DNA of 64,000 nucleotides from Escherichia coli (GTDB taxonomy: Bacteria > Pseudomonadota > Gammaproteobacteria > Enterobacterales > Enterobacteriaceae), in assembly GCA_902500055.1 (NCBI GenBank), contig GCA_902500055.1_4131.1; one strand, given 5' to 3'. The notes beneath the pieces are model-generated. The model did not search any database and was not told the origin of the DNA. It saw only the letters and a list, made by a program, of their open reading frames with translations. Position numbers and translations under genes: made by a program. This document shows, one piece after another, positions 38,236-64,000 of the stretch. Position 1 is the first letter of the stretch. The number at the start of each line of letters is the position of its first letter.

Positions 38236-38282
38236 TATCATAAATAAATCAAATGAATGAACGAATTATATGGAGTCCAAAA

Positions 38283-41200
38283 ATGACTAATAATTTTAAG
38301 TTTCAACCTACACAGATGGCTGAAGCAGTACAGAAGAAGCTTTTTATTAAAAGATTGCCTGAGTGGATGCAAGGCTTAGAAGATATTCAAAAAGTCAGTG
38401 ATGATGTTATTCAACAATGGTTTAATCCGGCTGAAAACGAATTAGTTGACGGCTATATTGGTGATATGGGTTCTCCTGCCGCTGCTGGTAATATCTTCTT
38501 ACATGAAAGTACTGTAGCACGTCAACTTTATCAGTTGTCCACTGCTTACGTCTCAAAAAATGATGATTCGACAATTCGTTCAATTCAATTTTATGATGAT
38601 CTAGTTGGATACATGAATCATTATGGAGCACTAACCGATAATGAAAGCCGTTTGTTCAACGGTAAGTTTTATGCATGGACTCCAGCTATTAACCCAAATA
38701 AAATGAACAATTTTAGCTCATATCTTTGGGATACTAAAAACTCTTATAATATTACTTCACCTGATTACATTGTAATGGAACGTGGAGCACTTAATGGTAA
38801 TACATGGTCACTACAAAACTTTTGGTATACTTTAGGTGAAACATTAGAAGATGGCTCAATATTAACTGAAGAATTAATGCAAGATTCACGTTTTATTCGT
38901 GCACGTGCACCAATTATTGAATATAATAAAAATATTGAGCTAATTAACTACGGTACAAAATTCCGTGGAACTGTTGATCTGTTCTCTGATATTATTAAAC
39001 CTGAAGATATCGTTCAAAAAGATATTAATAGTGGTATACGTATTGATGGTATTATTCCGCAAGATGGAATGCGTATTCTATTCACCAGTATTGGTAACAA
39101 TGGTGAAAACAATAGAATTTATAATGTATATGTGAAAAAAATGCAAGATGGTACTCGTGTTTATGGTTTAGCACTAGATCCAGAAGAAGAAACCGAATCA
39201 CGCCCAAGTGGTGAACCACAAGATGGTGATGTTGTTCTAATCACTAAAGGTAATGAGTATGGTAATAGTTCTATGTACTGGAATGGATCTTTGTGGGTTC
39301 GTGCACAATCAAAAACTAGTGTTAACGTATTCCCTAAATTCCAACTTTATGATCGTAATGGTATCAAACTTGACAACAGTACTACATATCCATCAAGTAA
39401 CTTTAAAGGTTCAGAGTTGTTTGGTTTTAAAATAAATTACAACTATGCAACTGATAGTGTATATGGATATAACATTGAACTTGGTGATTATAATTATTAC
39501 ATTTATGAAAACTTTTTACAATCCCAACGTTATACCTATGACCATCTTGGAAAAGAAGTTGAAATTGATGGTTTATACTATTATAACATTATTGATGAAA
39601 ATAATGAAATGAATCTTCAAACCGATTGGGTTCGTTCAGAAGAGTACTCTAAACAATTTGTAAAACAAACTCCACAAGTCAAACGTACTGATATGTATCG
39701 TGTATTCAGTACTGTTTATGATATGGAAGTTTTTAAAGAACCAGTTGATGGTATGTATGCATATGTTATTGAAGTTGATAGAACCTATCAGTACTATAAA
39801 GCAGACCGCGAAACTTATCTAGACTGGCATCCAATCACTGGTGATGGTGTTCAGATTGTAAAATATGACCATACATTCGAATTGGCACAAAAAGTTTTAG
39901 ATAATGATTCTGATATTATTGAAGTTGTGGTTGATGGTGTTGATGTGTCCAAATATACCAAAAATGTTTCAAAAGGTCAAGTACAAAGCATCACTCTAGA
40001 TAGTACTGTAGATTTGGATGAAGATTCTGTTATTCAAATCAGAACTTATAGCAGTACTGTAACTCCTAATAAAGAATTAGGTGCATATGAAGTTCCAATC
40101 AACCTACAAAATAACCCATATAATTCTAATATTATATACATTAACCAAGGTGACTACACTTTACATTTTCAGGATATTATTCAAAAGAACATTACACGTG
40201 GTTCTTCTGATGATTTCAATGACTATGAAGAACGTTTGGCTAAAGGATTGGTTAATAATGGCGTAGGTACTAAAATTATCCAAAATGAAGCATCTATGCT
40301 TCCATTGATGGCACATACTGCAAATGAAGATATTGATTTGTTTGAAGCAACTATGTTTATGCAATCTGAATATTTTAGATTCATTAATAAATTTAATACA
40401 CAAATGCTTCGTATGTATGATGAAAATCCATCAGACTTTTTACAAAATAGTGCTGCAAACATTGTTGATGCAATTTTAACTACTATTAATATGGGACGTG
40501 ATAGTTCATTCCCATTCTATTATGATAATGTTGGAAGTACTTCTGGATTCATTCGTGCATTTATACCACCAACACCACAGTTCTTAGGTATTCTTCAAGC
40601 ATATGTACCAGAAAAAGCGACATTCCTCACTGCTGGTAGTAAACCAAGCTGTTATAACATCAGTCATACTGGTATTATTTCCAAAGCATACCGTGTTATC
40701 AATGGTGTTGATAAAATGGATGATGTTGTATATGAATTAGAAAATAGAATTTTTAATAGTATTGATAATAAATTCAAAGATGTTGATTACGTACCAGTAT
40801 TGAATAGTGATGACCTTTTCCCTACACCATATTTCACTAAAACTGAATATAGTGCTGAAGAGAAACAAACATTATTACTACGTGGATACATTAACTTCAC
40901 CGCAACTAATGGTATCAGTAATAGTACACATGATTATGATCCTAACAATTGGAGAACTTGGAACTATACTGGCACTTATTATGTAGTTAATGGTCAAAGT
41001 ACTGAAATTCCTGCTCGTGGTTCATGGCGTGCAATTTATACTGACCAATATGGTACATATCGCCCTGCAACACATCCGTGGGAAATGTTTGGCTTTTCAC
41101 AGCGTCCAACTTGGTGGAACCAAGAATATGAACCAACTGCTGTTCAAGTTGGTGAGCGTGATAGTGATGTGGTATATGTATATGAAGCACTTGTTATGAA

Positions 41201-44200
41201 TGAACAAGGAGATTTAGTTCCTAGTGGTCTATGGGATATCGACGGCACTATCGGAGATAGTAGTACTGGTACTATTTTGTCTGGTGATCGCCGTGGACAG
41301 TATGACAAATATAAAAGATTTGGTGTACAGCCATTTAAAATCACAAAAACTGGTAATAAAACATCTTCCGGTATTGATATTTGTGTTGTTGAATATATTG
41401 CACCTGAAATTTTAGGTTTAGTGTCTGGTTCTTTAAATCATAGAGCAGAACCTTGGGCATATGGTGACATGGGTGACATGGAATTTACATACATGAACAC
41501 TACATTGTTTGCATATGACCAAATGCTACTTTTGTATAAAGCTAAACCTGCACAATTTGCTAACTATTTTTGGGATACCCGAAATGACAATTTAAAAGAA
41601 GTATTCACTGATGGTTCACAATTCCTTTATGGTGATACACGTAAGCGTATTAATTTTGATAAAAACACTGTAGTTCATGGTGAAAATAACACAAGAACAA
41701 TTGGTTATCAAATGTTTGTTAGTGATTATTTGATGTATCAAAATAAAAACATTACAACCAAATATGGGGATGTAGTTCGTTCTTCTTATATAAATGTTGG
41801 TCATAAAATTGGTGGTTTTACTAAAGCAGATCAGCTAACATTCAATGCTAAATCATTTGGTCTTATTTCACAAGAAAACCAAACTATTGGTCTTGTTCGC
41901 TCGAATAATATTCGTGATGAACAAATGAGTGCTATCAAAATTACTTGGAATGGTAGTGCATATCAGATTGATGGATATGATTTAGTTGGTGCTAAATTCA
42001 AATATAAACTGCCAGTGAAAAATGGTAGAAAAGTAACTCTTAAATTAGAAAACCGCAATGTTGTTCATTATAACGAATGGAAATCTGAAGCTTCCATTGA
42101 ATATGGTAAAGTTTTTAATAGTTACCAAGAAGTTTATACTTTTATTTGTGGTTATGGTGAATATCTTAAAGAACATGGCTGGATTTTTGAAGATGTAAAT
42201 GATAGTGGTGCTCAACAAGATTGGAACACTATTGCTAAAGATTTTGTGATCTGGAGTCAGAATTCTCTGGTAACGGGTGAATTTATTTCTTGTACACCAA
42301 GTGCAGCAAATGCTAAATTTGGTGCAGACTTTGGTTCAGTTCAATCTATTACACAAAATAACGGTGGTGTGTGGTCATTACTTGATGATAACAACCAAGG
42401 TATACGTCAATATGAAATTGAAACTTCTCGTATTGGTAATATCTTTACTGTTAGAACTTTAGAATCCAATAAACGTATAGCATTAATTCGTTTAAGTTTG
42501 TGTTCATATGAACATGCTGTTATTTTTGATGATAAGACTATTTTTGGTGATTATATCTATCAGCCAACTTATGGTTCTATTCAAGAATTAATTAAAATGT
42601 ATGGCTACATTACTGGTTCATGGACTGGTCGTCTACAAGCTCCTGGATTTATTATCTTGGAAGCTGGAACACTACCATCATTTGAAAAATTAGTGTCGGA
42701 TTTCCAACATTATTATGATAGTGAAACTCCAGTAAGTGATGTACAATTACAAGAGTTGTCAAACCATTTGATTGGTTATCAATCTCGTGATTATCTACAG
42801 CGTATGATTAGTAGTGATGTTAGTCGTGTTGATTTCTATAAAGGATTCATTCATGATAAAGGTACTAACCAAGTTTTAGAACGTGTACTTCGTGTTTCTA
42901 AATCATATGACACAGATGAATATAAAGCATTACAAGAATGGGCATTTAAAATTGGTACATATGGTAATATTGATGGTAAGAAAAACCTTCAATTTAAACT
43001 AATCAATGACCAATTTAAACAACAACCACAAATGGTATCTTTTGATGTAAACGCTACTTCAAATGGAAATGGAAACAATATTGTATACTTCGGCGAACAA
43101 GGTAAAGATCCTCGTTGGATTACACGTCCAAATGGTAAGTTCTCATTCCCGATGCGTAGTGGAAGAAGTGAAAACATTCAACTTCCAGATATTGGTCCAG
43201 TAACATTGGATGAAGTATCTTACACTACAAAAGATTTCAGTACTGCATATAATGACCGTATAACTTACACTAATGGTAAAGGTGAAAACCCTGAATCTGT
43301 TTGGATGTTTAAAGACGGAAATGGTTTATGGAATATTTTTGAATTAGTTGATACTAATGTGCAAATGGTTTCTATAACACCTATTGAAAATACCGATGTG
43401 TATGCTGAACAATTTTGTAAAGTAACTTTAACTGATAATGTGCCACTTGAAGATGGTGATTATTATTATTTTGTTGATGAAACTAACTTTATGCCAGATA
43501 CTTTAACAGTAGAAAGTCAATATTATACTGCTGGTTCTGATCCTAAAGTTATGGTAGTTCCATTTGACACTTCTATTGATATTGAATTTACTGATCCAGA
43601 TACACGTCCACGTTTGTATCGTTATGTATCACGTTTTGCCAGTGCAGAAGAGCGTCAAGCATATATTGACAAAAAGTATAGTTACAAAGCACCACAAAGT
43701 ACTTTTTTTGACCGTCCAACTACATATGATGAACGTACTAACATTACTGCATTATATCTAAATGTGTATGACCCTATCAATGGGGTTATTCCTGGTGCAG
43801 CAATGCAAAACGTAACTTATACGTCACCAATAGACCCAGCACAATATAATAGCAATGGTGAATTAATTCAGGCTTGGGGTGCTGATAAAGTTGGTCAAGT
43901 ATGGTGGAACACTAGCACTGCATTTTATTTGGATTATACTCGTGCAATTTATGACGCAGACGGTAATGTTGACATTGATGCAACCAATGAATACAAACGT
44001 TACAACTGGGGTCGTTTATTACCACATAGTACAATTGATGTGTTAGAGTGGGTTTGTTCACCAGTTGAGCCATATAACTGGGACAAATACTGTAAAGATG
44101 TTGCTAAGAAAAACAAAAATAATACTATGTATCTACCAAGTGGAACTGCACTTGAAGATAATTATAGTACATTTTTGGAATATGATAGTTCAACTGATAG

Positions 44201-47200
44201 TTATGTGACAAAATACTATTTCTGGGTACGTGATACAATTTATGTACCACCACTACATACCAGAACAAAATCATGTACTGACATTGCTCGTATTATTAAA
44301 GATCCAACACAGCTAAACATTCCTTGGTTCGCTCCAATCAATGAAAACTCGTTTATTCTTAGTAATATGCAATTTAAAGTGAATGATGATACCAGTATTT
44401 TAACTGTTTCTTATTACATGGATAGTACTGAAGTTGTTAAACATGACCAGTATCAACTATGTAAAGAAGGTGACAGCTATAACTTTAACCCACTAATTTG
44501 GGATTCAATGTGGAACTCACTAATTGGTCAAGAAACAACTGAATCAGGTTCTGTGATTAATTTATTATATCCAGATGTTGATAACGGTTTAGGTTCAAAC
44601 AAAACTTGGTTCCAAAATGTTATAGAAGCTCGTAGAAACTTTGTAGAAAGTGCTAATAATTATTATAGGTCACAAAACATAACCACTAATAGTGTTGTTA
44701 TGAAAGATGTGTTTAATGTTAAAACCACTGAAGTTAACCCTAATGAAGTTTCTTTCCGTGTCTTGTCTTACAATAATGAATTAGTTATTGCAGTTGAAAG
44801 TGATAAATTTAAAGAAAATGACGCTGTTATTTTAAGTACTAGTGGATATCTACCAAATCCATTAACTTCTAGTGCTGTTTATTTTATTCACTTCGACGAA
44901 AATGGATATATTCAGTTAATGAATAGTCCAGCAAACGCGGGTAGTGTTGTTACTATAACGTTAGAGAACAAAGGTGAGGGACAACATAAAATGATTAAGC
45001 AATCTGATTATGTTGAATCACTAGGAACTTCATTAGACATGACTCAGTACTGGTCATATGCTGATTGGTATGATGTTGGGTATGATAGTAACACGACTTA
45101 TACACAAGAGTCAAGCTTAGAAGATGCTAATACTAAAAACTACCAAGTTGGCGATATTATCAGAGTTACCGATAGTGAAAACATTTGGACATTGTATATT
45201 AAATCACAATCACGCGATTCAATTTATTGGAAAGCGATTGGTCGTGAAAACAGTACAGTTGAACTCAATGATATGCTTTACGCAGATTATAGTGTTCATA
45301 ATGATAATGGTTCACTAAGCAATCGTGAAATCAACGTTCGTAAAGCACTAGCTTTACTCAAAAATTCTTTCGATTTACATCAAAGCGAAATTGTTTTTGA
45401 TATGGTCAAATATGTACATGTTGAACAAAGTGTTGTGGATTGGGTATTTAAAACATCATATATCTATATTGTTGGTTTGGAACAATCATTAGTTCAAAAC
45501 TATTCAAACGATAATTTGATTAATCAAATTGTTGAATATTTTGAAGAAGTTAAACCTTATAGAACTAAAATTCGTTCACAAATAGAGCAAAAGACATCTG
45601 ATGATGATTTAATAAAAGGTCTATGTAATGATTTAGATCCTAATGGATATATTTTCGTTGATGGTTCTTGGATCAAAACTGAAAAAGATATTTGGGATTA
45701 TGAGTACGCTCAATTTAATGAAATTACCCAAAAATGGGAACAGGTAGGTTCACTACCAAGTGATTTCGTTACACCAAATAGAAGATTCCAAGAAATTGAT
45801 ATTATTATGCATTATGATAATATTCAGTGTAAACCAAATGAAGATTTGGCAAGCATAAATGAATTAGTAAGTGTTAATAACAAATATCAATCCAATGAAA
45901 AGGATGCTGTTAGTAACTATGAATTACAACGTTATATATATTCTTTCCCAGAATATAGTGAAGAAACTTTCGATCTTCTTATTGCTTATCAAATGCAAAT
46001 CTACTATCCAGAATTGGATGTAACACTAGGAACAGCATATGGCGTTAACCAGTGGTATAAAGACCATGCGGAAGATTTAGAAGCAACTGATGAATTCACT
46101 GCTACATTGGAACGTGTTTATAAAGAATCAACGCATAACGATATGTTTACTGACCTTAGACAATATGTTCAGTATAACACATTGGCAAACCGTTTGAAAC
46201 TTTATAAAGATATAAGTGATGAGAAAATTCACGATGAAGTTGGATGTGGATTTAGTGGACTTACTTATAATGACAATCCTAGTACTAGACTTCCATTAGG
46301 CTTTTCTTCTAGTAATGATTATAACTATGGATATTTTGAAATAAGCAGTGAATTGTATCAAAAATACATTTCATTAATTAAAGATAAAAATCCTGACGCA
46401 TCAGACTATGAAGTAAAAGTTAAACTTGAAGTTGAGTATGGTGTATATGTTTATCGTTATGATGAAGTAGGTGGTGATACCCGTTTCTATACTGATGCTA
46501 TTCACGTATTAGCAGGTATGAGAGGGTTATTCGACAAAGACGCTACTGATAAGTACGAAAAAGCTGAAGAGATTCTTAGTAAGACCCCAATTGATATCTA
46601 TGCAATTACAATGATTCCACGAAAATATGTTTACTTAAATGTTAACGGTGTATATCAAAGTATACCTGATGAACAAAGTATTGATGATTTCATGGAAGAT
46701 TATTTTATCACAAATGGTGAAATGGTTGAACTAGCTGAAATAAATCTTGATGATTTACCACTAGATCAAAATAATCCAATGTATTCTGATTATCAATATA
46801 TACTTGATAGTATTACTGAAGCTAAGTACTTCAATGATATGAATGCATTTGATAACCTAGCATTAGAATCTCAAACTTCTTCAATAAAATGGGAAGTTAA
46901 AGATGATGAGGTTGATCCTTATATTGTGGATATATCTGACATAAACCCTTCTGGGCGTGATGTTGGTCAAATTAGATTTACAGTTGATGGATATGGGTTT
47001 GACAATGTATCTCTTGTACAATTACGTGATAACAGCAGATATCAAACTGAAGGTATGGCAATTATCAATCCATATAAACATACAGAAGCAATTGTTAGTA
47101 TTCCTTCATATGCTAAGATTGAAAATGATATTAATAAAACAACATCGAAGTTTGATGAAAAATATTTCTATCGTGTGAGATCTATTAATAGCTTAACTGA

Positions 47201-48254
47201 AGCAGAAATAGTTGACAATGACCTATCTGATGGTGATAAGGTGATGATTTTCACTCCTGATGGTGAAGATTTTGTGAGATATCAAAATCACACATGGGAA
47301 ACAATCTTGCGTGTATCTAACATCAAAAACAATACAACTCCGATCCTATTCACTGTAAGAAATACAGGTAAGGAAACGATTGAATTGATTGATGAGAGTA
47401 CTGGTGCAGTTCTCCGTTATGATAACATCACTCTTGCACAACAAAATGAGCCAGTACAGCCTCTAGCATTGAACATTGTTCGTGTTAGAACATTTGCTGA
47501 CCCTGAATTTGTCAAGAATGGTATTAAATTGTATGAACAAAATAGAAATTACACCATTGATGTAATTAATTATGATGTTTTCTACGATACTACTTTAAAT
47601 GGTGGTAAGTACAATGACGGAATAACACCAGATGACGTTGACGTTTGGATAATCTCTAATGAAATATTTGATGTTGATGGAATTACTATCGATAACGGTT
47701 ATAACTTACCAATTACGGGTGCGGGAGTTCTTAGTGAATTGGCAAGAACTAAAATGACTGATAGTTTAGAAATCAACGTTATCGAATATGATTCAAGTGT
47801 TATTCAACCGTTTAGAAATAATGAAGGGATATGGGTTTATGGATTCCCAATGGTTGACGGTATGTATATCGGTGTTGTTGGTGGTACTGTTACTAACATC
47901 ACAACCATTAGTGAAGAAAATACAACCTATGTTTCTCAACCTAAATCAATAAGTCCTTATAGTATTAGAAATAATGTTTTATCCGGTTCAGCCGCAAACA
48001 TGAATGATATTATATCGATTGGATATGAAAAAGTTGAAGTTAGAAATGCAAATAATTTACTCCGTGGTGTAATGTATAGTGCAGAACATGATTTTAAACT
48101 TAATACTACATATTCTTTCAATGGAATTAATTTAGGTAATTATGATATGTTAAAACGTTACACACAAAATAGTTACACTATAGATCTTTCAGTATACACT
48201 GATAGTCTACAAGTTAGTGGTAATGATATTAAAAATATATTATTAGTTAAGTAA
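38283..48254 (+). CDS. Giant virion protein (about 3,323 aa), probable baseplate/fibre-network protein
   Basis: Uninterrupted 10-kb ORF; start set at the Met with a GGAG RBS (38283). No catalytic motif recognised; Asn/Tyr/Asp/Thr-rich. Synteny (after gp25 and gp6) suggests a gp7-like component. Confidence 0.75.
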   Translation: MTNNFKFQPTQMAEAVQKKLFIKRLPEWMQGLEDIQKVSDDVIQQWFNPAENELVDGYIGDMGSPAAAGNIFLHESTVARQLYQLSTAYVSKNDDSTIRSIQFYDDLVGYMNHYGALTDNESRLFNGKFYAWTPAINPNKMNNFSSYLWDTKNSYNITSPDYIVMERGALNGNTWSLQNFWYTLGETLEDGSILTEELMQDSRFIRARAPIIEYNKNIELINYGTKFRGTVDLFSDIIKPEDIVQKDINSGIRIDGIIPQDGMRILFTSIGNNGENNRIYNVYVKKMQDGTRVYGLALDPEEETESRPSGEPQDGDVVLITKGNEYGNSSMYWNGSLWVRAQSKTSVNVFPKFQLYDRNGIKLDNSTTYPSSNFKGSELFGFKINYNYATDSVYGYNIELGDYNYYIYENFLQSQRYTYDHLGKEVEIDGLYYYNIIDENNEMNLQTDWVRSEEYSKQFVKQTPQVKRTDMYRVFSTVYDMEVFKEPVDGMYAYVIEVDRTYQYYKADRETYLDWHPITGDGVQIVKYDHTFELAQKVLDNDSDIIEVVVDGVDVSKYTKNVSKGQVQSITLDSTVDLDEDSVIQIRTYSSTVTPNKELGAYEVPINLQNNPYNSNIIYINQGDYTLHFQDIIQKNITRGSSDDFNDYEERLAKGLVNNGVGTKIIQNEASMLPLMAHTANEDIDLFEATMFMQSEYFRFINKFNTQMLRMYDENPSDFLQNSAANIVDAILTTINMGRDSSFPFYYDNVGSTSGFIRAFIPPTPQFLGILQAYVPEKATFLTAGSKPSCYNISHTGIISKAYRVINGVDKMDDVVYELENRIFNSIDNKFKDVDYVPVLNSDDLFPTPYFTKTEYSAEEKQTLLLRGYINFTATNGISNSTHDYDPNNWRTWNYTGTYYVVNGQSTEIPARGSWRAIYTDQYGTYRPATHPWEMFGFSQRPTWWNQEYEPTAVQVGERDSDVVYVYEALVMNEQGDLVPSGLWDIDGTIGDSSTGTILSGDRRGQYDKYKRFGVQPFKITKTGNKTSSGIDICVVEYIAPEILGLVSGSLNHRAEPWAYGDMGDMEFTYMNTTLFAYDQMLLLYKAKPAQFANYFWDTRNDNLKEVFTDGSQFLYGDTRKRINFDKNTVVHGENNTRTIGYQMFVSDYLMYQNKNITTKYGDVVRSSYINVGHKIGGFTKADQLTFNAKSFGLISQENQTIGLVRSNNIRDEQMSAIKITWNGSAYQIDGYDLVGAKFKYKLPVKNGRKVTLKLENRNVVHYNEWKSEASIEYGKVFNSYQEVYTFICGYGEYLKEHGWIFEDVNDSGAQQDWNTIAKDFVIWSQNSLVTGEFISCTPSAANAKFGADFGSVQSITQNNGGVWSLLDDNNQGIRQYEIETSRIGNIFTVRTLESNKRIALIRLSLCSYEHAVIFDDKTIFGDYIYQPTYGSIQELIKMYGYITGSWTGRLQAPGFIILEAGTLPSFEKLVSDFQHYYDSETPVSDVQLQELSNHLIGYQSRDYLQRMISSDVSRVDFYKGFIHDKGTNQVLERVLRVSKSYDTDEYKALQEWAFKIGTYGNIDGKKNLQFKLINDQFKQQPQMVSFDVNATSNGNGNNIVYFGEQGKDPRWITRPNGKFSFPMRSGRSENIQLPDIGPVTLDEVSYTTKDFSTAYNDRITYTNGKGENPESVWMFKDGNGLWNIFELVDTNVQMVSITPIENTDVYAEQFCKVTLTDNVPLEDGDYYYFVDETNFMPDTLTVESQYYTAGSDPKVMVVPFDTSIDIEFTDPDTRPRLYRYVSRFASAEERQAYIDKKYSYKAPQSTFFDRPTTYDERTNITALYLNVYDPINGVIPGAAMQNVTYTSPIDPAQYNSNGELIQAWGADKVGQVWWNTSTAFYLDYTRAIYDADGNVDIDATNEYKRYNWGRLLPHSTIDVLEWVCSPVEPYNWDKYCKDVAKKNKNNTMYLPSGTALEDNYSTFLEYDSSTDSYVTKYYFWVRDTIYVPPLHTRTKSCTDIARIIKDPTQLNIPWFAPINENSFILSNMQFKVNDDTSILTVSYYMDSTEVVKHDQYQLCKEGDSYNFNPLIWDSMWNSLIGQETTESGSVINLLYPDVDNGLGSNKTWFQNVIEARRNFVESANNYYRSQNITTNSVVMKDVFNVKTTEVNPNEVSFRVLSYNNELVIAVESDKFKENDAVILSTSGYLPNPLTSSAVYFIHFDENGYIQLMNSPANAGSVVTITLENKGEGQHKMIKQSDYVESLGTSLDMTQYWSYADWYDVGYDSNTTYTQESSLEDANTKNYQVGDIIRVTDSENIWTLYIKSQSRDSIYWKAIGRENSTVELNDMLYADYSVHNDNGSLSNREINVRKALALLKNSFDLHQSEIVFDMVKYVHVEQSVVDWVFKTSYIYIVGLEQSLVQNYSNDNLINQIVEYFEEVKPYRTKIRSQIEQKTSDDDLIKGLCNDLDPNGYIFVDGSWIKTEKDIWDYEYAQFNEITQKWEQVGSLPSDFVTPNRRFQEIDIIMHYDNIQCKPNEDLASINELVSVNNKYQSNEKDAVSNYELQRYIYSFPEYSEETFDLLIAYQMQIYYPELDVTLGTAYGVNQWYKDHAEDLEATDEFTATLERVYKESTHNDMFTDLRQYVQYNTLANRLKLYKDISDEKIHDEVGCGFSGLTYNDNPSTRLPLGFSSSNDYNYGYFEISSELYQKYISLIKDKNPDASDYEVKVKLEVEYGVYVYRYDEVGGDTRFYTDAIHVLAGMRGLFDKDATDKYEKAEEILSKTPIDIYAITMIPRKYVYLNVNGVYQSIPDEQSIDDFMEDYFITNGEMVELAEINLDDLPLDQNNPMYSDYQYILDSITEAKYFNDMNAFDNLALESQTSSIKWEVKDDEVDPYIVDISDINPSGRDVGQIRFTVDGYGFDNVSLVQLRDNSRYQTEGMAIINPYKHTEAIVSIPSYAKIENDINKTTSKFDEKYFYRVRSINSLTEAEIVDNDLSDGDKVMIFTPDGEDFVRYQNHTWETILRVSNIKNNTTPILFTVRNTGKETIELIDESTGAVLRYDNITLAQQNEPVQPLALNIVRVRTFADPEFVKNGIKLYEQNRNYTIDVINYDVFYDTTLNGGKYNDGITPDDVDVWIISNEIFDVDGITIDNGYNLPITGAGVLSELARTKMTDSLEINVIEYDSSVIQPFRNNEGIWVYGFPMVDGMYIGVVGGTVTNITTISEENTTYVSQPKSISPYSIRNNVLSGSAANMNDIISIGYEKVEVRNANNLLRGVMYSAEHDFKLNTTYSFNGINLGNYDMLKRYTQNSYTIDLSVYTDSLQVSGNDIKNILLVK

Positions 48255-57512: not shown

Positions 57513-59654
57513 ATGGCAGTATTTTCTAATTTTGAAGGAACTATGCAGCCCAAATTCATATTGGGGAAAAAAGGTGCTTCAATAAATTTTATCAATGATT
57601 CAGTTTCTATAAAAGATTATCTAGGAGAACAGTTCCTACCACTGAAGGTAGGAACTTCATCTGATCCTAATTCAGCAGTTAACGTAAAATATCTTGAAGA
57701 TAACCCTAATGCATTATTTGGTGTTGTACCACCTACCGATGATATAGGAAAGAACAATAATACGTATTTTCAAATTGATGAAGATGGTATTGTTGATATT
57801 TTTGCAAAAAGCAATGGTACATGGGTAAAATCATTATACATTAATAAAAAAGTTCTATCCAGTAAAAATGGTGGAGATTTCATCGGACTTATTACTGGAG
57901 GTACAGTTCAACAGGCACAGTTTTATATAACACCAGAAGAATTTGGTGCTAAAGGTGATGGCGAAACTGATGACACTGCTGCTGTAAATTTATGTGCTGC
58001 TTATGCTAAAGAAAATAAAATCCAAATTCAGGCTGGTGGTAATTACCGTATCAAAACTGCAATATATCTGGAAGATGTAACTTGGTTTGGGGGAACTATT
58101 ACTGGTAACGGTGGTACTATGGTATCCGTTATTAATTCCCAAATACAATTTGCAACACTTACTGGATGTTATTTAAAATTCTTCGGCGGCGATGGTAAGT
58201 TTTATTTTAATAAATTTATAAACATCACAAGTACTGCTGCATTTTTAATGCAAGGTATGACACAACCAGGTACAATAGATTTTTGCTTTAATGAAATGAC
58301 CCAATGTAAGTATGGCGTTCTTCAACAAGGTACTGGTGAGAAAATGAAGGTTGGTAGATATTCATATAACCACATACATGATATATATGGTGATGCAATT
58401 GAACTAAACGTAATTAACTCACACTATCCTGATGGTTTTGTTATTGAAGGGAACATAATTGAAAACGTTGATGGTTCTAACGCTCCAATCCCACTTTCAA
58501 ACTGGGGTATTGGTATTGGAGTTGCTGGTTCTGGACCTTATGGTTTAGATGCACCAGACACACAATATGTAAGAAACTTTGTTATTAAAAATAACAGACT
58601 ATATAATGTTAGACAATGTATCCACGTTGAATTAGGCATGGACTTTAAAATACTTAATAATGAAGTTTATCCATCATCTTTAGTTTCTGTCGGTACTGGA
58701 TTAACCACTGCTGGTGTTATAACTTATGGTTCTAAAGAATTCATTATTGATGGGTTGACTGGTCATTTGCTTAATGATCCTTCTATCACAAATAGAATGG
58801 TTTCAATAAACTGGGGTGTAACTTCTGGTCGTTTTGCTGGACCACCTAGAAACTTTAAAATTTCTAATCTCTATATTCCAGAGTCTTCTATACTTGTTTA
58901 TACTTCCGGTTCTGATAATTGGTTAAATAATACAGAATTGAGCAATATCACCTGTTCTAAAATTCTTTGGCGTGGTTTGCCATCATCATCTAAATTTAGT
59001 GATATTAGAACTAAAGAATTAGATGTAATTGGTCAACACCTCTCTACAGAAGGCGAAGGTGGTGGTATATATACTCGCTCTAAATATACTTATACTAATT
59101 GGACTAACTGTGTTGTTCAAGATGATTGTAATGTTTCAAAATATAGTTTTTCTAAAATGTATGTAGACAGAATAGACCAATCATCTAATAACTTTAAAGT
59201 TACAACTGCAATCGATGGTACAGGTCACCGTGGCCCAGTACTGATACCTGTAGTTGAACAATATTATATTCCATATGATACTTTTCCAGGGGGACGCTAT
59301 TTCTCTGAAGGCACGATTATTCATAAACAATCGGGTGGAAAATATATTGTAACTGTTGGTGGTTCTTTTTTCGGAAAATATGACACAATTAGACAAACGG
59401 TAGCAGGACAAACATACATAGAAGCATTGGGTGTGTCATGGGGTGAAAACCAATATGCAAAAGCTGCTGGTACTGAGATTATTATATCTGGTGCTGGTGA
59501 AAATGGTGGTGATTTGAGAACGTATATAACTCGTGCAGTGTATGTTGTAAACAACGTATATAGAATTGATATTGCAGATCCTATCATAACAGCAACTGCC
59601 GCTGGTGCAGCATTAAAAGCCGCCCAACCCGTAACTTACATAACCCTACCATAA
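57513..59654 (+). CDS. Tailspike with pectate-lyase-like beta-helix (putative polysaccharide depolymerase)
   Basis: 713 aa. N-terminal MAVFSNFEGTMQPKFILGKKGA module shared with the next gene. FGAKGDGETDDTAAVNLCAAYA is the signature of pectate-lyase-fold depolymerases. GGGAGG RBS. Confidence 0.7.
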   Translation: MAVFSNFEGTMQPKFILGKKGASINFINDSVSIKDYLGEQFLPLKVGTSSDPNSAVNVKYLEDNPNALFGVVPPTDDIGKNNNTYFQIDEDGIVDIFAKSNGTWVKSLYINKKVLSSKNGGDFIGLITGGTVQQAQFYITPEEFGAKGDGETDDTAAVNLCAAYAKENKIQIQAGGNYRIKTAIYLEDVTWFGGTITGNGGTMVSVINSQIQFATLTGCYLKFFGGDGKFYFNKFINITSTAAFLMQGMTQPGTIDFCFNEMTQCKYGVLQQGTGEKMKVGRYSYNHIHDIYGDAIELNVINSHYPDGFVIEGNIIENVDGSNAPIPLSNWGIGIGVAGSGPYGLDAPDTQYVRNFVIKNNRLYNVRQCIHVELGMDFKILNNEVYPSSLVSVGTGLTTAGVITYGSKEFIIDGLTGHLLNDPSITNRMVSINWGVTSGRFAGPPRNFKISNLYIPESSILVYTSGSDNWLNNTELSNITCSKILWRGLPSSSKFSDIRTKELDVIGQHLSTEGEGGGIYTRSKYTYTNWTNCVVQDDCNVSKYSFSKMYVDRIDQSSNNFKVTTAIDGTGHRGPVLIPVVEQYYIPYDTFPGGRYFSEGTIIHKQSGGKYIVTVGGSFFGKYDTIRQTVAGQTYIEALGVSWGENQYAKAAGTEIIISGAGENGGDLRTYITRAVYVVNNVYRIDIADPIITATAAGAALKAAQPVTYITLP

Positions 59655-60567: not shown

Positions 60568-60575
60568 CAAATTAA

Positions 60576-60608
60576 CCAGGCTTGTTCTAAATAAGTCTGG
60601 TTTTTTAT
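60576..60608 (+). terminator. Rho-independent terminator after the fibre cassette
   Basis: CCAGGCTT-loop-AAGTCTGG stem (one G-U pair) followed by TTTTTT. Confidence 0.6.
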
Positions 60609-60704
60609 TATATTTGCTTTTGTCAAATAATGTATTAATTGTTGGATAACAGCATAATAAAACTAAATATATACATATTAACAAGGTTATAATGGAGGGT
60701 ATAA

Positions 60705-63700
60705 ATGTACTCAATAAAAACTGACTTAGATATTACTGGTGCTGGTACGGTTGGTAAGGATCTTTTAGTCAAAGGAAATGCTGTTTTCAATAATAACCTA
60801 ACTGTAAATGGTACTGTAACTTTTGCAAATGCAACTTTTACTGCCATTGAATCATCAACTGCCAATATTACATCTACTTTAGATGTAGGTGGCAAAGCAA
60901 CACTTTCTGGTGGTCTTGGTGTTGAGGGTAATACTACAATCGGTAGTGCAGTGGTCGGGTCTGATACAGCAACAATTAATTCAAACGCTACCTTTAACGG
61001 TACTGTATCAGTTGGTTCTGATTTTACACAAACTGCTGGTACAACCACTCTACAAGCAACTAAAGTTAAAAACTTAGAAGTTGCTGAAACAACAGCATTT
61101 AAAGGTAATATTACTGCTGATGTTGGTACTACTGCTGCATTTGATAAAATTACTGCTAATACCGCAGAAATTACTAATGTAAGTACAACCGATATTAGTA
61201 GTACTGGTACTGCTACATTTAAAGATGTGACAATTAGTGGTACACTTGGTGGTGAGTTTAATCTATCTGACTTAAATGCAGTAACATTGAACGTTACTGG
61301 TGCATCTAACCAACAAGGTGCAGTAACTTTCGGTGCTAACGTAACTGGTATTAACAGTACTGCTACTTTTAAAGACATTCGTATTGGTTCTAACTCTGAA
61401 TCTCAAACCTTCAGATTAAGCTTCCCTTACACTGCTCCTGGTAAACGCCCAACTGTTATTCTACAAAACGAAATTCAGTCCGAGTTAATGTCACCTGCAA
61501 ACTTAACAGTTTTGACATCTGCTTCTTTTGGTAATGCGTCATTATCTTCTTATGGTATTACTGGTAATGGTCTAAACAAATTAGATTATCTAACAGTTTC
61601 TGGTAACAATACACAATCACCAGACACCCCACTATTAGAAGTTCAAAAAGGAAAAACCAAAGTTGCCGATTTTGAAGTTACAGGAACCGCAACTATACCA
61701 AATATTGAAAGTACTGGAACTGCTAATTTTAATAATATTAATATTTCTGGTGTTCTTGGTGGAACATTCCAACTAGATGATATTAATGCAGTAACATTGA
61801 ACGTTACTGGGGCCACTTCGTTAGTTGGTGGTGTTACTCTTGGTTCTAATATTACTGGTTATAATAGTACTGCTACCTTTAAAGCTATTAGCTTAGGTCA
61901 AAATAGTCAAGATGCAGCAGTGAAACTAGGTTTTGGATATACTGCACCCGGTCAACGCCCAACAGTTATTCTACCTAATGAAGTTCAATCAGAAGTAGTT
62001 TCTCCTTCTACATTGAACGTTCTTAAAACTGCAACTTTTGGTAATGCGTCATTATCGTCTTATGGCATTACTGGTAATGGCCTAAACAAATTAGATTATC
62101 TAACAGTTTCTGGTAACGAAACACAAGCTCCAGATACACCACTATTAGAAGTTCAAAAAGGAAAAACCAAAGTTGCTGACTTTGAAGTCACCGGAACTGC
62201 AACTATACCAAATATTGAAAGTACTGGAACTGCTAATTTTAATAATATTAATATTTCTGGTGTTCTTGGTGGAACATTCCAATTAGACGATATTAATGCA
62301 GCATCTTTGAACGTTACTGGTGCAACTTCATTAGTTGGTGGTGTTACTCTTGGTTCTAATATTACTGGTTATAACAGTACTGCATCATTTAAAGCTATCA
62401 GCTTAGGCCAAAGTAGTCAAGATTCTGCTGTAAAACTTGGATTTGGATATACTGCACCAAGTCAACGTCCAACCGTGATTTTACCTAACGAAGTTCAATC
62501 AGAATTAGTTTCTCCTTCAACACTGAACGTTCTAAAAACGGCAACTTTTGGTAATGCTGCACTTTCTACGTATGGTATTACTGGTAATGGCCTAAACAAA
62601 TTAGATTACCTAACCATTACAGGTAACGCAACACAAGACCCTAGTACACCATTCCTACAAGTTGGTGGTAAAGCAATTCTTAATGATGTTGAATTTACTG
62701 GAACAGTAACTGGGTTAACTGTTGATGTAAGTGGTCAGGATCTAACACCAAACTCAGTTGTTGCTGCGACAAATATTAAAGGTGCAACCCTTGAAAGTAC
62801 TGGTAACACTACTGTGGGTGCTAAACTAACTGTTACTGGTGATATTGCTGGTACAACTGCAACTCTTTCTGGTGCATTATCTGCTGGTTCAATAAGTTCT
62901 GGTGTTATTACTGGTACAACTTCAGTTTCAGCACCAACAATTAGTGCATCTACTGAAGTAACTGCTCCTACTATCACTGCTAGTGGGACTTTAAGTGGTC
63001 AAACTATTAACGGAACTAATATTAGTGCAACAACTCTTACTGCACCAACTATTAGTGGTAATACAAACTTTACAGAAAATGTTGATATTACTGGCAACCT
63101 AACCGTTACTGGCACAGTAACGCCAGGTACGATTGATTTGAGCACAACTGATGTAAGTGCGAAATCTATTACTACTACCGCTGGTGCAAATATTGGTGGT
63201 GATCTTGTGGTTCAAGGTTCTTTTGATTTATCATCAGCAGACATTAGCGTTAAATCACTAACTGCTTCTGGTATTGTTAAAAGTAATGATCTTGTTAATG
63301 CTAACGTACTTCCAGTACTTAATAGTACTACTGCAACAATTAATACTGTTAATGCAACTGAACTTGCGGTAACAGGTCCATCCAATCTAGCATCTGTTCG
63401 TACAAGTGCTGATGTTGTAGTCGGAACAACTTTAAATGTAAGTGGTGAAACAACAACTGCATCTCTAGTTACTCCATCTATTTCCAATGCAACTGGTGTT
63501 ACAATTGGTAATAATACTTCTATCACTGGTGACTTAACTGTTAGTGGTGCTGTGATTCCTGGATCTATCGACCTAGCATCAACTGATGTTAACGCTAAAT
63601 CAATCACAACAACTGCTGGTGCAACAATTGGTGGAAACTTAACCGTTAACGGTACAGTAGACCTAACTGCTGCTGATGTAACAGTTAAATCTCTAACCAG

Positions 63701-64000
63701 TACTGGTGCAATCATTAGTAATGAATCAACTATTAGTAGTGTTCTACCTAAACTACAAAGTACTGATGCGACAATTGCAACTCTAGGTTCTACTACTGCG
63801 AATATTACTAATTTGAATGTAACTGGTGCAACTTCTGTTGCTGATGTAACATCTTCTGGTAAAGTTACAGCAGTTTCTATTGAAGTTCCAACCATTGGTA
63901 ATACTGCGGGTGTATCTATTGCTAATAATACATCTATTACTGGTGACCTAACAGTTTCTGGTACAGTGACACCAGGTGCTATTGATTTAACAACAACTGA
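60705..64000 (+). CDS. Very long repetitive fibrous protein (3' partial, runs off the window)
   Basis: Translated by hand: the frame starting at the ATG at 60705 (GGAGGG RBS) stays open to nt 64000, so at least 1,098 codons. Thr/Gly/Ala/Asn/Val-rich with two families of long in-frame tandem repeats. Absent from the ORF track, presumably because no stop lies in the window. Confidence 0.75.
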   Translation, partial: MYSIKTDLDITGAGTVGKDLLVKGNAVFNNNLTVNGTVTFANATFTAIESSTANITSTLDVGGKATLSGGLGVEGNTTIGSAVVGSDTATINSNATFNGTVSVGSDFTQTAGTTTLQATKVKNLEVAETTAFKGNITADVGTTAAFDKITANTAEITNVSTTDISSTGTATFKDVTISGTLGGEFNLSDLNAVTLNVTGASNQQGAVTFGANVTGINSTATFKDIRIGSNSESQTFRLSFPYTAPGKRPTVILQNEIQSELMSPANLTVLTSASFGNASLSSYGITGNGLNKLDYLTVSGNNTQSPDTPLLEVQKGKTKVADFEVTGTATIPNIESTGTANFNNINISGVLGGTFQLDDINAVTLNVTGATSLVGGVTLGSNITGYNSTATFKAISLGQNSQDAAVKLGFGYTAPGQRPTVILPNEVQSEVVSPSTLNVLKTATFGNASLSSYGITGNGLNKLDYLTVSGNETQAPDTPLLEVQKGKTKVADFEVTGTATIPNIESTGTANFNNINISGVLGGTFQLDDINAASLNVTGATSLVGGVTLGSNITGYNSTASFKAISLGQSSQDSAVKLGFGYTAPSQRPTVILPNEVQSELVSPSTLNVLKTATFGNAALSTYGITGNGLNKLDYLTITGNATQDPSTPFLQVGGKAILNDVEFTGTVTGLTVDVSGQDLTPNSVVAATNIKGATLESTGNTTVGAKLTVTGDIAGTTATLSGALSAGSISSGVITGTTSVSAPTISASTEVTAPTITASGTLSGQTINGTNISATTLTAPTISGNTNFTENVDITGNLTVTGTVTPGTIDLSTTDVSAKSITTTAGANIGGDLVVQGSFDLSSADISVKSLTASGIVKSNDLVNANVLPVLNSTTATINTVNATELAVTGPSNLASVRTSADVVVGTTLNVSGETTTASLVTPSISNATGVTIGNNTSITGDLTVSGAVIPGSIDLASTDVNAKSITTTAGATIGGNLTVNGTVDLTAADVTVKSLTSTGAIISNESTISSVLPKLQSTDATIATLGSTTANITNLNVTGATSVADVTSSGKVTAVSIEVPTIGNTAGVSIANNTSITGDLTVSGTVTPGAIDLTTT
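61201..62730 (+). repeat. Three tandem in-frame repeats of about 510 bp (170 codons)
   Basis: Anchor strings recur at exactly 510-nt spacing (61201, 61711, 62221). Copies 2 and 3 are near-identical over most of their length; copy 1 is diverged in its 5' half. Confidence 0.85.
63085..64000 (+). repeat. Second tandem repeat family (period about 420-440 bp), at least two copies plus a partial one
   Basis: Recurring ITG(D/N)LTV(S/T)G.V.PG.IDL..TDV.AKSITTTAGA.IGG... units at roughly 63090, 63530 and 63950; more diverged than family 1; continues past the window end. Confidence 0.6.

Follow-up and report, generated by a model that had tools for sequence, protein, structure and literature searches.

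The 3′ end of the window (the whole 64,000-nt stretch of DNA that was analysed) likely encodes the N-terminal half of the large tail fibre of an Asteriusvirus-type jumbo myovirus of Escherichia coli, in which the repeats are shaft modules that have been changed by unequal recombination. In the proposed layout of this fibre, a 165-aa attachment region would be followed by the A shaft modules (three here), a linker, and B modules of ~140–155 aa. Past the window, orthology predicts 112-aa C modules and a C-terminal tip of ~185 aa, which presumably binds the receptor. Rare unequal recombination between neighbouring units would add or remove one whole module in frame, and each A unit gained or lost would shift the length of the shaft by ~10 nm, leaving both ends untouched. 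The feature is real but ordinary, as phage fibres are commonly built from repeated shaft segments.

The fibre gene and its orthologues

The plus strand between nucleotides 60705 and 64000 translates to 1,098 stop-free codons, and the frame is still open at the window end (64000), with the 3′ part of the gene located beyond it. This agrees with the initial annotation, which had described a gene of at least 1,098 codons running off the window. The same source had remarked that the gene is missing from the ORF track, and this is indeed the case because the list omits ORFs that run off the end of the sequence. The start region (60694–60707, + strand) comprises the ribosome-binding site GGAGGG at 60694–60699 and the ATG start codon at 60705, and the identical start is annotated in phages CRJP21, JP4, 121Q, G17, UB, ph0011, and UE-S1. 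Farther upstream, a terminator-like hairpin with a T-run (60574–60602, + strand) closes the gene of a 298-aa structural protein and sets it apart from the fibre gene. In phage G17, a terminator is annotated at the equivalent position. A sigma-70 promoter scan of the 137-nt spacer upstream of the fibre gene gave no score above chance. The 1,098 encoded residues are dominated by Thr (17.7%), Gly (10.8%), Ser (10.5%), Ala (9.2%), Val (9.0%), and Asn (8.4%), and Cys, His, and Trp are absent.

An antisense ORF at 60635–61378, which is an annotated gene in PBECO4, was rejected as a coding sequence, because it is broken in relatives and because the substitutions relative to these follow the + frame, falling mostly at its third codon positions. 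Of note, the PBECO4 reference record is without the fibre gene, and antisense ORFs are annotated there instead.

By sequence and gene order, the gene was identified as an orthologue of the Asteriusvirus tail-fibre proteins 121Q gp571 (YP_009102158.1) and phAPEC6 gp256. Orthologues were found by a DNA search combined with exact look-up of the neighbouring gene; those with named products also include CRJP21 gp_304 (WIL00823.1) and JP4 CDS0665 (XHY54301.1). The protein aligned gap-free with the first 1,098 aa of the CRJP21 and JP4 proteins, and the first 2.0 kb of the gene, the three-unit array included, are 99.5% identical to both phages. The Asteriusvirus orthologues share with this gene the locus, the start codon, the N-terminal region, and the A and B modules, whereas 121Q and phAPEC6 have two A units and one C unit fewer. 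As in this orthogroup, a conserved 165-aa N-terminus (MYSIKTDL...) is followed here by the A array from residue 166. This N-terminal region (60705–61199, + strand) is rich in beta-strand repeats and conserved in the fibres of jumbo phages, and presumably forms the end by which the fibre is attached. Among the four tandem fibre genes of Turkey5 and Ecwhy_1, three are 67–69% identical in this region, and Ecwhy1_208 is 39% identical. Some relatives have two tandem copies of the fibre gene with different C-terminal tips.

The order of the genes upstream is the same as in the orthologous loci, with a 713-aa WcaM-like depolymerase and the 298-aa structural protein preceding the fibre gene. The latter closes the baseplate/tail block, beside the depolymerase tailspike. 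In the orthologous loci, the fibre gene is followed by a gene for a 259-aa DUF4376 protein, a position that lies past this window. The complete fibre protein would, by orthology, be very long: 121Q gp571 and phAPEC6 gp256 have 1,841 aa, the CRJP21 and JP4 proteins have 2,129 aa, and intact complete orthologues span 1,827–2,129 aa. The profile of PHROG 4549 ("tail fiber protein") matched the protein with an E-value of 7.1e-174 in 5 matched stretches. Searches of Pfam and NCBIfam returned no family for the fibre protein; homologues carry the precomputed Pfam tag PF26209. Importantly, mass spectrometry of phAPEC6 virions identified gp256 (180 kDa) by 15 unique peptides (PMC7247149 Table 1). The presence of this orthologue in virions and the PHROG match support the earlier description of the gene as fibrous.

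Repeat units and their copy number

The A array is composed of three in-frame units of 510 nt at 61200–62729 (+ strand), only one base off the position first proposed for them (61201–62730). Each unit encodes 170 aa: unit 1 spans 61200–61709 (aa 166–335), unit 2 spans 61710–62219 (aa 336–505), and unit 3 spans 62220–62729 (aa 506–675), with the tail of unit 3 running into the conserved junction motif TGLTVDVSGQDLTPNSV. All three units are in codon register. The Thr/Gly/Val/Asn-rich peptide that had been quoted as an example of a module, VTLNVTGATSLVGGVTLGSNITGYNSTATFK, was found in unit 2. Identity at an offset of 510 nt within the array was 77.6%, whereas other in-frame offsets gave 31.0 ± 1.9% (maximum 35.9%). 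Neither the A nor the B array was detected by Tandem Repeats Finder, because the period of the former exceeds its 500-nt limit and the units of the latter are too diverged. Both arrays were defined instead by repeat finding and offset-identity scans.

Units 2 and 3 had been described as nearly identical, but they share only 79% of their DNA and 78% of their protein sequence. The corresponding values are 76% and 74% for units 1 and 2, and 62% and 55% for units 1 and 3 (DNA values in the register of the initial annotation). The identity between units 2 and 3 is unevenly distributed: the first ~45–60 nt are identical and the first ~300 nt are 90% identical, whereas the last 210 nt are only 64% identical. 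These last 210 nt of unit 2 are 88% identical to unit 1. The middle unit is thus a chimera of the head of unit 3 and the tail of unit 1, as would be expected if an unequal crossover had occurred in an ancestor with two units. The longest exact repeat in the array is 84 nt.

The A and B arrays are joined by a 119-aa linker (62730–63086, + strand), which holds a stretch with a 15-nt (5-aa) period at 63002–63054. The second family of ~430-bp units that had been noticed downstream corresponds to B unit 1 (63087–63521, 435 nt, 145 aa) and B unit 2 (63522–63935, 414 nt, 138 aa), both on the + strand, which share 54% of their protein and 62% of their DNA sequence. B unit 3 begins at 63936, with its first 21 aa encoded up to 64000, and continues beyond the window. 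Similarity to CRJP21 falls from 99.5% to ~87% around 62,690–62,813, and the exchange point in this phage coincides with the module boundary at the end of the A array. From ~62,800 onward, no record in the phage collection searched exceeds 87% identity to the B region. A megablast search of this region against E. coli genomes and plasmids gave no match, and a 50-nt exact pattern from it was absent from the viral and genome contig collections searched. The fibre gene of this phage is therefore a new mosaic allele within a family of fibres that is already known.

The suggestion that copy number may vary between isolates proved correct for the A units, of which isolates have two or three. Three units are present in this window, in CRJP21 and JP4, and in five genome-assembly contigs, so that the three-unit allele, 99.5% identical, is found in seven independent assemblies (CRJP21, JP4, and five NCBI assemblies). 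Two units are present in 121Q, G17, UB, PBECO4, ph0011, UE-S1, and others; two-unit orthologues show a 170-aa gap (alignment columns 393–562) where unit 2 stands. The three-unit gene of Turkey5 has a middle unit that copies unit 1, and its gain was therefore independent. P0007 and P0010, which belong to a distant clade, also have three A units. A units have been gained at least two times independently. The 112-aa C block is present once or twice among the orthologues (twice in UB, once in 121Q and phAPEC6), and natural alleles of 2,129, 1,959, and 1,841 aa differ by whole in-frame shaft modules.

Only two or three A units were seen in the ~22 Asteriusvirus-type fibre genes censused and in ~24 metagenomic homologues, and the two-unit state is retained even in homologues at ~30–35% identity. 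The A units are old and diverged, and the two-unit state is ancient. With this state, exact repeats of at most 84 nt, and no array of more than three units, the initial term "hyper-repetitive" is exaggerated. The hazard that the array was thought to pose for short-read assembly was likewise overstated: since the longest exact repeat is 84 nt, the risk is small, and the three-unit allele has been assembled seven times independently.

Fold of the modules and alternative readings

The fibre is most likely homotrimeric, intertwined, and beta-structured, and built from serial modules. In AlphaFold2 monomer models, the A and B units form extended chains that are nearly devoid of secondary structure within the chain. 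The confidence of these models was fair to high, with pLDDT >90 over residues 10–70 of the B unit. Such a near-absence of intrachain secondary structure is what a single chain taken from an intertwined multimer should show. An Ig-like fold, which had been suggested for the units, is not supported, because Pfam gave no match and the models are extended without a beta-sandwich. Foldseek searches of the PDB with the A and B monomer models gave no match, a result that is weakly informative for single extended chains. Hydrophobicity showed a weak period of about 6 residues, and one homologue had a near-threshold bactofilin match (27.7 versus 27.9 bits). Together with the extended, confident chains, these observations are compatible with a trimeric beta-helix, as far as monomer models can indicate. 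The number of repeats may tune the length of the fibre or its receptor reach, and might in this way affect adsorption.

In electron microscopy of phAPEC6 and 121Q, the only fibres reported are short ones at the baseplate and long "hairy" ones on the sheath and capsid (PMC7247149, PMC5646251). A fibre of >100 nm has no obvious fit to the reported "six short tail fibers".

Other readings of the array and of the fibre were weighed against the one proposed here. Mis-assembly of a true two-unit gene, with a duplicated or chimeric repeat, could be suspected because two-unit alleles are common in relatives and because the middle unit is chimeric between its neighbours. However, the middle unit differs by 10–12% from both neighbours where it resembles them, which an assembler cannot make from a two-unit template. 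The short exact repeats, the frame that is open throughout the array, and the 99.5%-identical allele in CRJP21, JP4, and five independent NCBI assemblies also argue against an artefact, which we consider extremely improbable. It is also very unlikely that the array is a fast contingency locus, with copy number changing often within a phage population. Isolates do differ in copy number, gains have occurred at least two or three times, and the second array, of 112-aa C units, is polymorphic as well. Nevertheless, just two states were encountered in the genes censused and their metagenomic homologues, homologues at ~30% identity still have two units, and units within a gene are only 55–78% identical in protein, with exact repeats of at most 84 nt. 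Moreover, the three-unit allele goes back to a single origin in all eight of its copies, which are 99.5% identical.

Alternatively, the protein could be a long, flexible "hairy" fibre of the sheath or capsid, rather than a receptor-binding fibre of the baseplate, in which case the repeats would set the length of the hair. The hairs of phAPEC6 have no assigned protein (PMC7247149), and 121Q has long fibres around its capsid and sheath too (PMC5646251). A trimer of 1,841–2,129 aa at ~0.6 Å per residue would be 110–140 nm long, a length more in keeping with a long flexible fibre than with "six short tail fibers", and the N-terminal anchor is unlike the baseplate anchor of phage phiTE. In contrast, the gene lies beside the depolymerase tailspike, where the baseplate/tail module ends, the shaft and the C-terminal tip have homology to a fibre that was modelled as part of the phiTE baseplate, and tandem copies with differing C-terminal tips, as in the relatives, are typical of receptor-binding proteins. 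Assignment to the hairs is thus unlikely. A broader idea, which we regard as quite unlikely, is that Asteriusvirus fibres occur in discrete length classes (two or three A units and one or two C units, with recurrent independent gain and loss) selected to match the thickness of the capsule or O-antigen, and that this polypeptide of >100 nm may be the long hairy fibre. If true, the repeat number would be a simple, engineerable genetic dial for fibre reach.

The preferred reading remains that of a large tail fibre with a modular shaft. Tail fibres decide the host range of phages, and Asteriusvirus phages are considered for therapy against pathogenic E. coli. The in-frame module differences between natural alleles and the exchange point at a module boundary offer a rational guide to the engineering of such fibres and to the interpretation of host-range differences.

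Comparison with known fibres

A counterpart in a solved baseplate was found in phage phiTE (Certrevirus, Vequintavirinae). In searches of the PDB, the A-unit profile matched residues 177–347 of 9CUY chain g (E = 6.5e-40), and the B-unit profile matched the same chain (E = 6.7e-12). The C-terminus of the CRJP21 orthologue (residues 1944–2126, beyond this window) also matched this chain (E = 5.2e-28). The chain (9CUY/9MJN chain g, "putative tail fiber protein") probably corresponds to the long tail fibre of phiTE, which is a trimer with a distal part predicted to form an extended beta-helix (PMC11972413). At 793 aa, it is about a third as long as the jumbo-phage fibres. Both have an A-type module, which in phiTE directly follows an N-terminal region of ~170 aa, and B-type segments, but the phiTE fibre has one A unit compared to two or three in the jumbo-phage fibres. 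The N-terminal anchor of phiTE, a helical bundle with a globular part (AVDQ...YFKTP...WWYAP), is unrelated to the beta-repeat N-terminus MYSIKTDL... of the jumbo phages. Accordingly, the N-terminal 185 aa of the single-unit fibres showed no similarity to the MYSIKTDL... region, and HMMER alignments start at chain residue 172 or later. In the phiTE structure, only residues 14–171 were built into density, and the part homologous to the jumbo-phage fibre is without an experimental structure.

Many database records name this gene "long tail fiber proximal subunit", as for T4 gp34. Homology to T4 gp34 was rejected, as the best BLASTP E-value was 2.0 and the hhalign probability was 0.1%; this label is therefore without sequence support. 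The likeness to gp34 is functional only, consisting of a very long subunit, repeated beta-structured segments, and a gene near baseplate and fibre genes. The T4 fibre is made of four proteins, whereas here one polypeptide covers a comparable length.

A comparable principle is known from the adenovirus fibre, a trimer in which in-frame repeats, lying between the conserved anchor and the tip that binds the receptor, determine by their number how long the shaft is. Its pseudo-repeats, which vary in number between serotypes, are 15 residues long and have another fold, in an unrelated protein of a eukaryotic virus.

Reading frame, identity and gene context of the fibre

The plus strand at 60705–64000 translated into 1,098 stop-free codons, starting with an ATG at 60705 preceded by GGAGGG. 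A terminator-like hairpin (60574–60602) ends the gene upstream of it. The same start codon is annotated for the orthologous gene in seven phages, and third codon positions of the plus frame take most substitutions between the fibre gene and its relatives. The initial annotation called this gene correctly and noted its absence from the ORF track; the feature is real, and it is missing only because the track leaves out ORFs that run off the source. Two antisense ORFs lie inside the fibre gene, of 247 aa (60635–61378, −) and 227 aa (63212–63895, −). In PBECO4 (KC295538; L002 8931–9674), antisense ORFs are annotated as genes (e.g., AGC35229.1) and the fibre gene is unannotated; the linear start of this GenBank record cuts through the fibre gene. 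The ORF at 60635–61378 was rejected as a gene because the substitution pattern is that of the plus frame and relatives lack an intact copy; it arises as a side effect of the Thr/Gly/Val/Asn codon bias.

The source of the window is an Asteriusvirus-type E. coli jumbo phage. Matches to the region came from 32 phage records; in 20 of these, the match covers 80% or more of the region. The fibre protein matched PHROG 4549 'tail fiber protein' (E 7e-174), and its orthologue in phAPEC6, gp256 (180 kDa), was detected by 15 unique peptides in purified virions and named tail fibre protein (PMC7247149). These two results support the proposed fibre identity. The orthologues have 2,129 aa in CRJP21 and JP4, 1,959 aa in UB, 1,841 aa in 121Q, G17 and phAPEC6, 1,834 aa in ph0011, and 1,827 aa in UE-S1. 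Judging from this comparison, a stop codon just beyond the window is very unlikely, because every intact complete orthologue examined, including those of nine further genome-assembly contigs, has at least 1,827 aa. The sole broken copy comes from the automated assembly Logan SRR12907740 (L017 11038–16564), where a single-base insertion near the end of A unit 1 (GCTGGACTTT in place of GCTGACTTT) splits the gene into 323 and 1,522 aa. The insertion may be a sequencing error or else mark a natural pseudogene; it has no relation to the repeats.

The fibre gene is the last of a baseplate/tail block that encodes a hub-lysozyme, a wedge protein, a 3,333-aa structural protein, a gp15-like sheath stabiliser, a tail protein, a WcaM/pectate-lyase-like depolymerase and a 298-aa structural protein. 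The 3,333-aa ORF (38253–48254, +) matches PHROG 10938 'virion structural protein' over its full length and looks like the 382-kDa gp245 of phAPEC6, as judged by size and gene order, not by alignment. The 713-aa gene that neighbours the fibre gene (57513–59654, +) encodes the WcaM/pectate-lyase-like 'colanic acid-degrading' tailspike (PHROG 6117). In JP4, the gene annotated at the depolymerase position (L004 2844–3449) measures just 606 nt, a length that points to a large deletion within the depolymerase of this phage or to its truncation.

Repeat arrays and variation in A-unit number

Direct-repeat analysis recovered three copies at an exact spacing of 510 nt, together with a second family whose spacings are 435 and 414 nt, in agreement with the two arrays described initially. 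Tandem Repeats Finder (TRF) missed both, as it handles periods up to 500 nt and the divergence between the B units is too high for it. In codon register, the 170-aa A units on the plus strand span 61200–61709 (A1), 61710–62219 (A2) and 62220–62729 (A3). B1 (63087–63521, 145 aa) and B2 (63522–63935, 138 aa), which share 54% protein identity, and a third B unit starting at 63936 follow on the same strand. Within the linker between the arrays, a short stretch (63002–63054) shows a 15-nt (5-aa) periodicity of PTISA/PTITA-like sequence (TRF: 3.5 copies, 71% matches). Within the A array, identity at offset 510 was 77.6%, compared to 31.0 ± 1.9% at other in-frame offsets, a repeat signal far beyond chance. 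Identity was 76% in DNA and 74% in protein for A1/A2, 79% and 78% for A2/A3, and 62% and 55% for A1/A3. A2 and A3 are close to identical, as first described, over their first ~300 nt (90%, with the first ~45–60 nt identical) but not over the whole unit.

In the multiple alignment, the window protein aligned gap-free with those of CRJP21 and JP4. All other orthologues in the alignment are short of exactly one 170-aa A unit, and in some a 112-aa block further along is missing too. The census found three A units in the window, CRJP21, JP4, five NCBI assembly contigs and one of the two fibre genes of Turkey5. Two units are present in 121Q, G17, UB, PBECO4, ph0011, UE-S1, four assembly contigs, the other Turkey5 gene and both Ecwhy_1 genes. 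Copy number thus does vary between isolates (2 vs 3), and the array never exceeds three units. Homologues of only ~30–35% identity still have two A units at the same position; two such homologues have three.

A2 of the window is a chimera, with nt 1–300 being 90% identical to A3 and nt 300–510 being 88% identical to A1. Such a product is expected when units 1 and 2 of a two-unit gene undergo unequal crossover, an event that would have created the extra middle unit. The flanking units are 98–100% identical to the two units of PBECO4, whereas the chimeric unit is 10–12% diverged from them, so the extra unit either is of old origin or came in from a diverged relative. In Turkey5, the middle unit instead duplicates unit 1 of the same gene (86% identity in one of the two parts, 81% in the other), and this gain was therefore independent. 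Expansion of the A array is recurrent but rare. With at most three units, a longest exact repeat of 84 nt and the same three-unit allele in seven independent assemblies besides the window, the locus matches neither a hyper-variable one nor a serious assembly hazard. The interpretation as a fibre of varying copy number stands; its hyper-repetitive character, near-identical units and assembly hazard were exaggerated.

Beyond the window, a third repeat family, the 112-aa C units (CRJP21, L001 protein columns 1486–1597), is also polymorphic, with two units in CRJP21, JP4 and UB and one in 121Q, G17, ph0011 and UE-S1. This polymorphism leads to the three fibre lengths observed (2,129, 1,959 and 1,841 aa).

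Mosaic junction and tandem fibre genes

As far as the A array reaches, the window matches CRJP21 and JP4 at 99.5% identity. From about 62,690–62,813 on, identity to CRJP21 falls sharply to ~87%, and no closer match to this distal part was found in any phage record or collection searched. The recombination junction thus falls on a module boundary, and the distal shaft in the window is a new allele. The fibre family itself is known, annotated and virion-verified, and the gene adds a new mosaic allele to it. The literature search found no paper describing fibre module polymorphism, which gives the finding a modest descriptive value.

In some Asteriusviruses, the locus holds two fibre genes in tandem, namely in Turkey5 (L010 526–5412 and 5551–11913) and Ecwhy_1 (L011 626–5560 and 5710–11409), all four with an A array. 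The N-terminal region is common to both Turkey5 genes (67–69% identical to the window). In Ecwhy_1, it is found only in the first gene; the second is 39% identical and its A array starts at aa 113. The C-terminal end of the first gene of each pair is unrelated to that of CRJP21, which suggests that the pairs may provide two receptor specificities.

Predicted fold, fibre length and relation to known fibres

AlphaFold2 monomer models of A2 (pLDDT 73) and B1 (pLDDT 79, >90 at residues 10–70) were extended chains with almost no intrachain secondary structure. This argues against the Ig-like domains considered initially. Such models have the look of one chain of an intertwined trimer, short of proof. 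A Foldseek search with the monomer models gave no match. The sequence also has a weak hydrophobic period of about 6 residues, which would fit the faces of a beta-helix. The protein is most likely a trimeric fibre in which the number of serial modules between the conserved anchor and the tip would set shaft length. Scaled by the phiTE prediction (512 Å per 793 aa) or by T4 gp5C (~0.6 Å per residue), one A unit would add roughly 10 nm to a fibre of roughly 110–140 nm. In published micrographs, 'six short tail fibers' are seen together with long hairs that decorate sheath and capsid (PMC7247149, PMC5646251), so the place of the protein among the tail fibres is probable, not certain; that it forms one of the long hairs seems unlikely.

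Many records name this tail fibre gene after T4 gp34, a relationship we rejected because no similarity was found. The A module is rare (53 clusters among 1.84 billion representative proteins) and nearly always starts at residue 150–185. By tblastn, it occurs in 236 phage records, as single units in rV5-like, Certrevirus-like and other ~130–150-kb phage records and as multiple units in Rak2-like jumbo phages (e.g., CBB, GAP32, Eneladusvirus). The A-unit profile matched one PDB sequence, the 793-aa 'putative tail fiber protein' of phiTE (9CUY/9MJN chain g), at residues 177–347 (E 6.5e-40). The B-unit profile also matched this chain (E 6.7e-12), and the C-terminus of the CRJP21 orthologue matched its C-terminus (E 5e-28). 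We infer that chain g is the long tail fibre described for phiTE, a trimer with N-terminal residues 14–171 built into the baseplate map and the remainder predicted as an extended beta-helix about 512 Å long (PMC11972413). In contrast to these modules, the N-terminal anchor is not common to the two groups: small-phage fibres start with an AVDQ...YFKTP...WWYAP domain, and those of jumbo phages with MYSIKTDL and, after it, beta-strand repeats.
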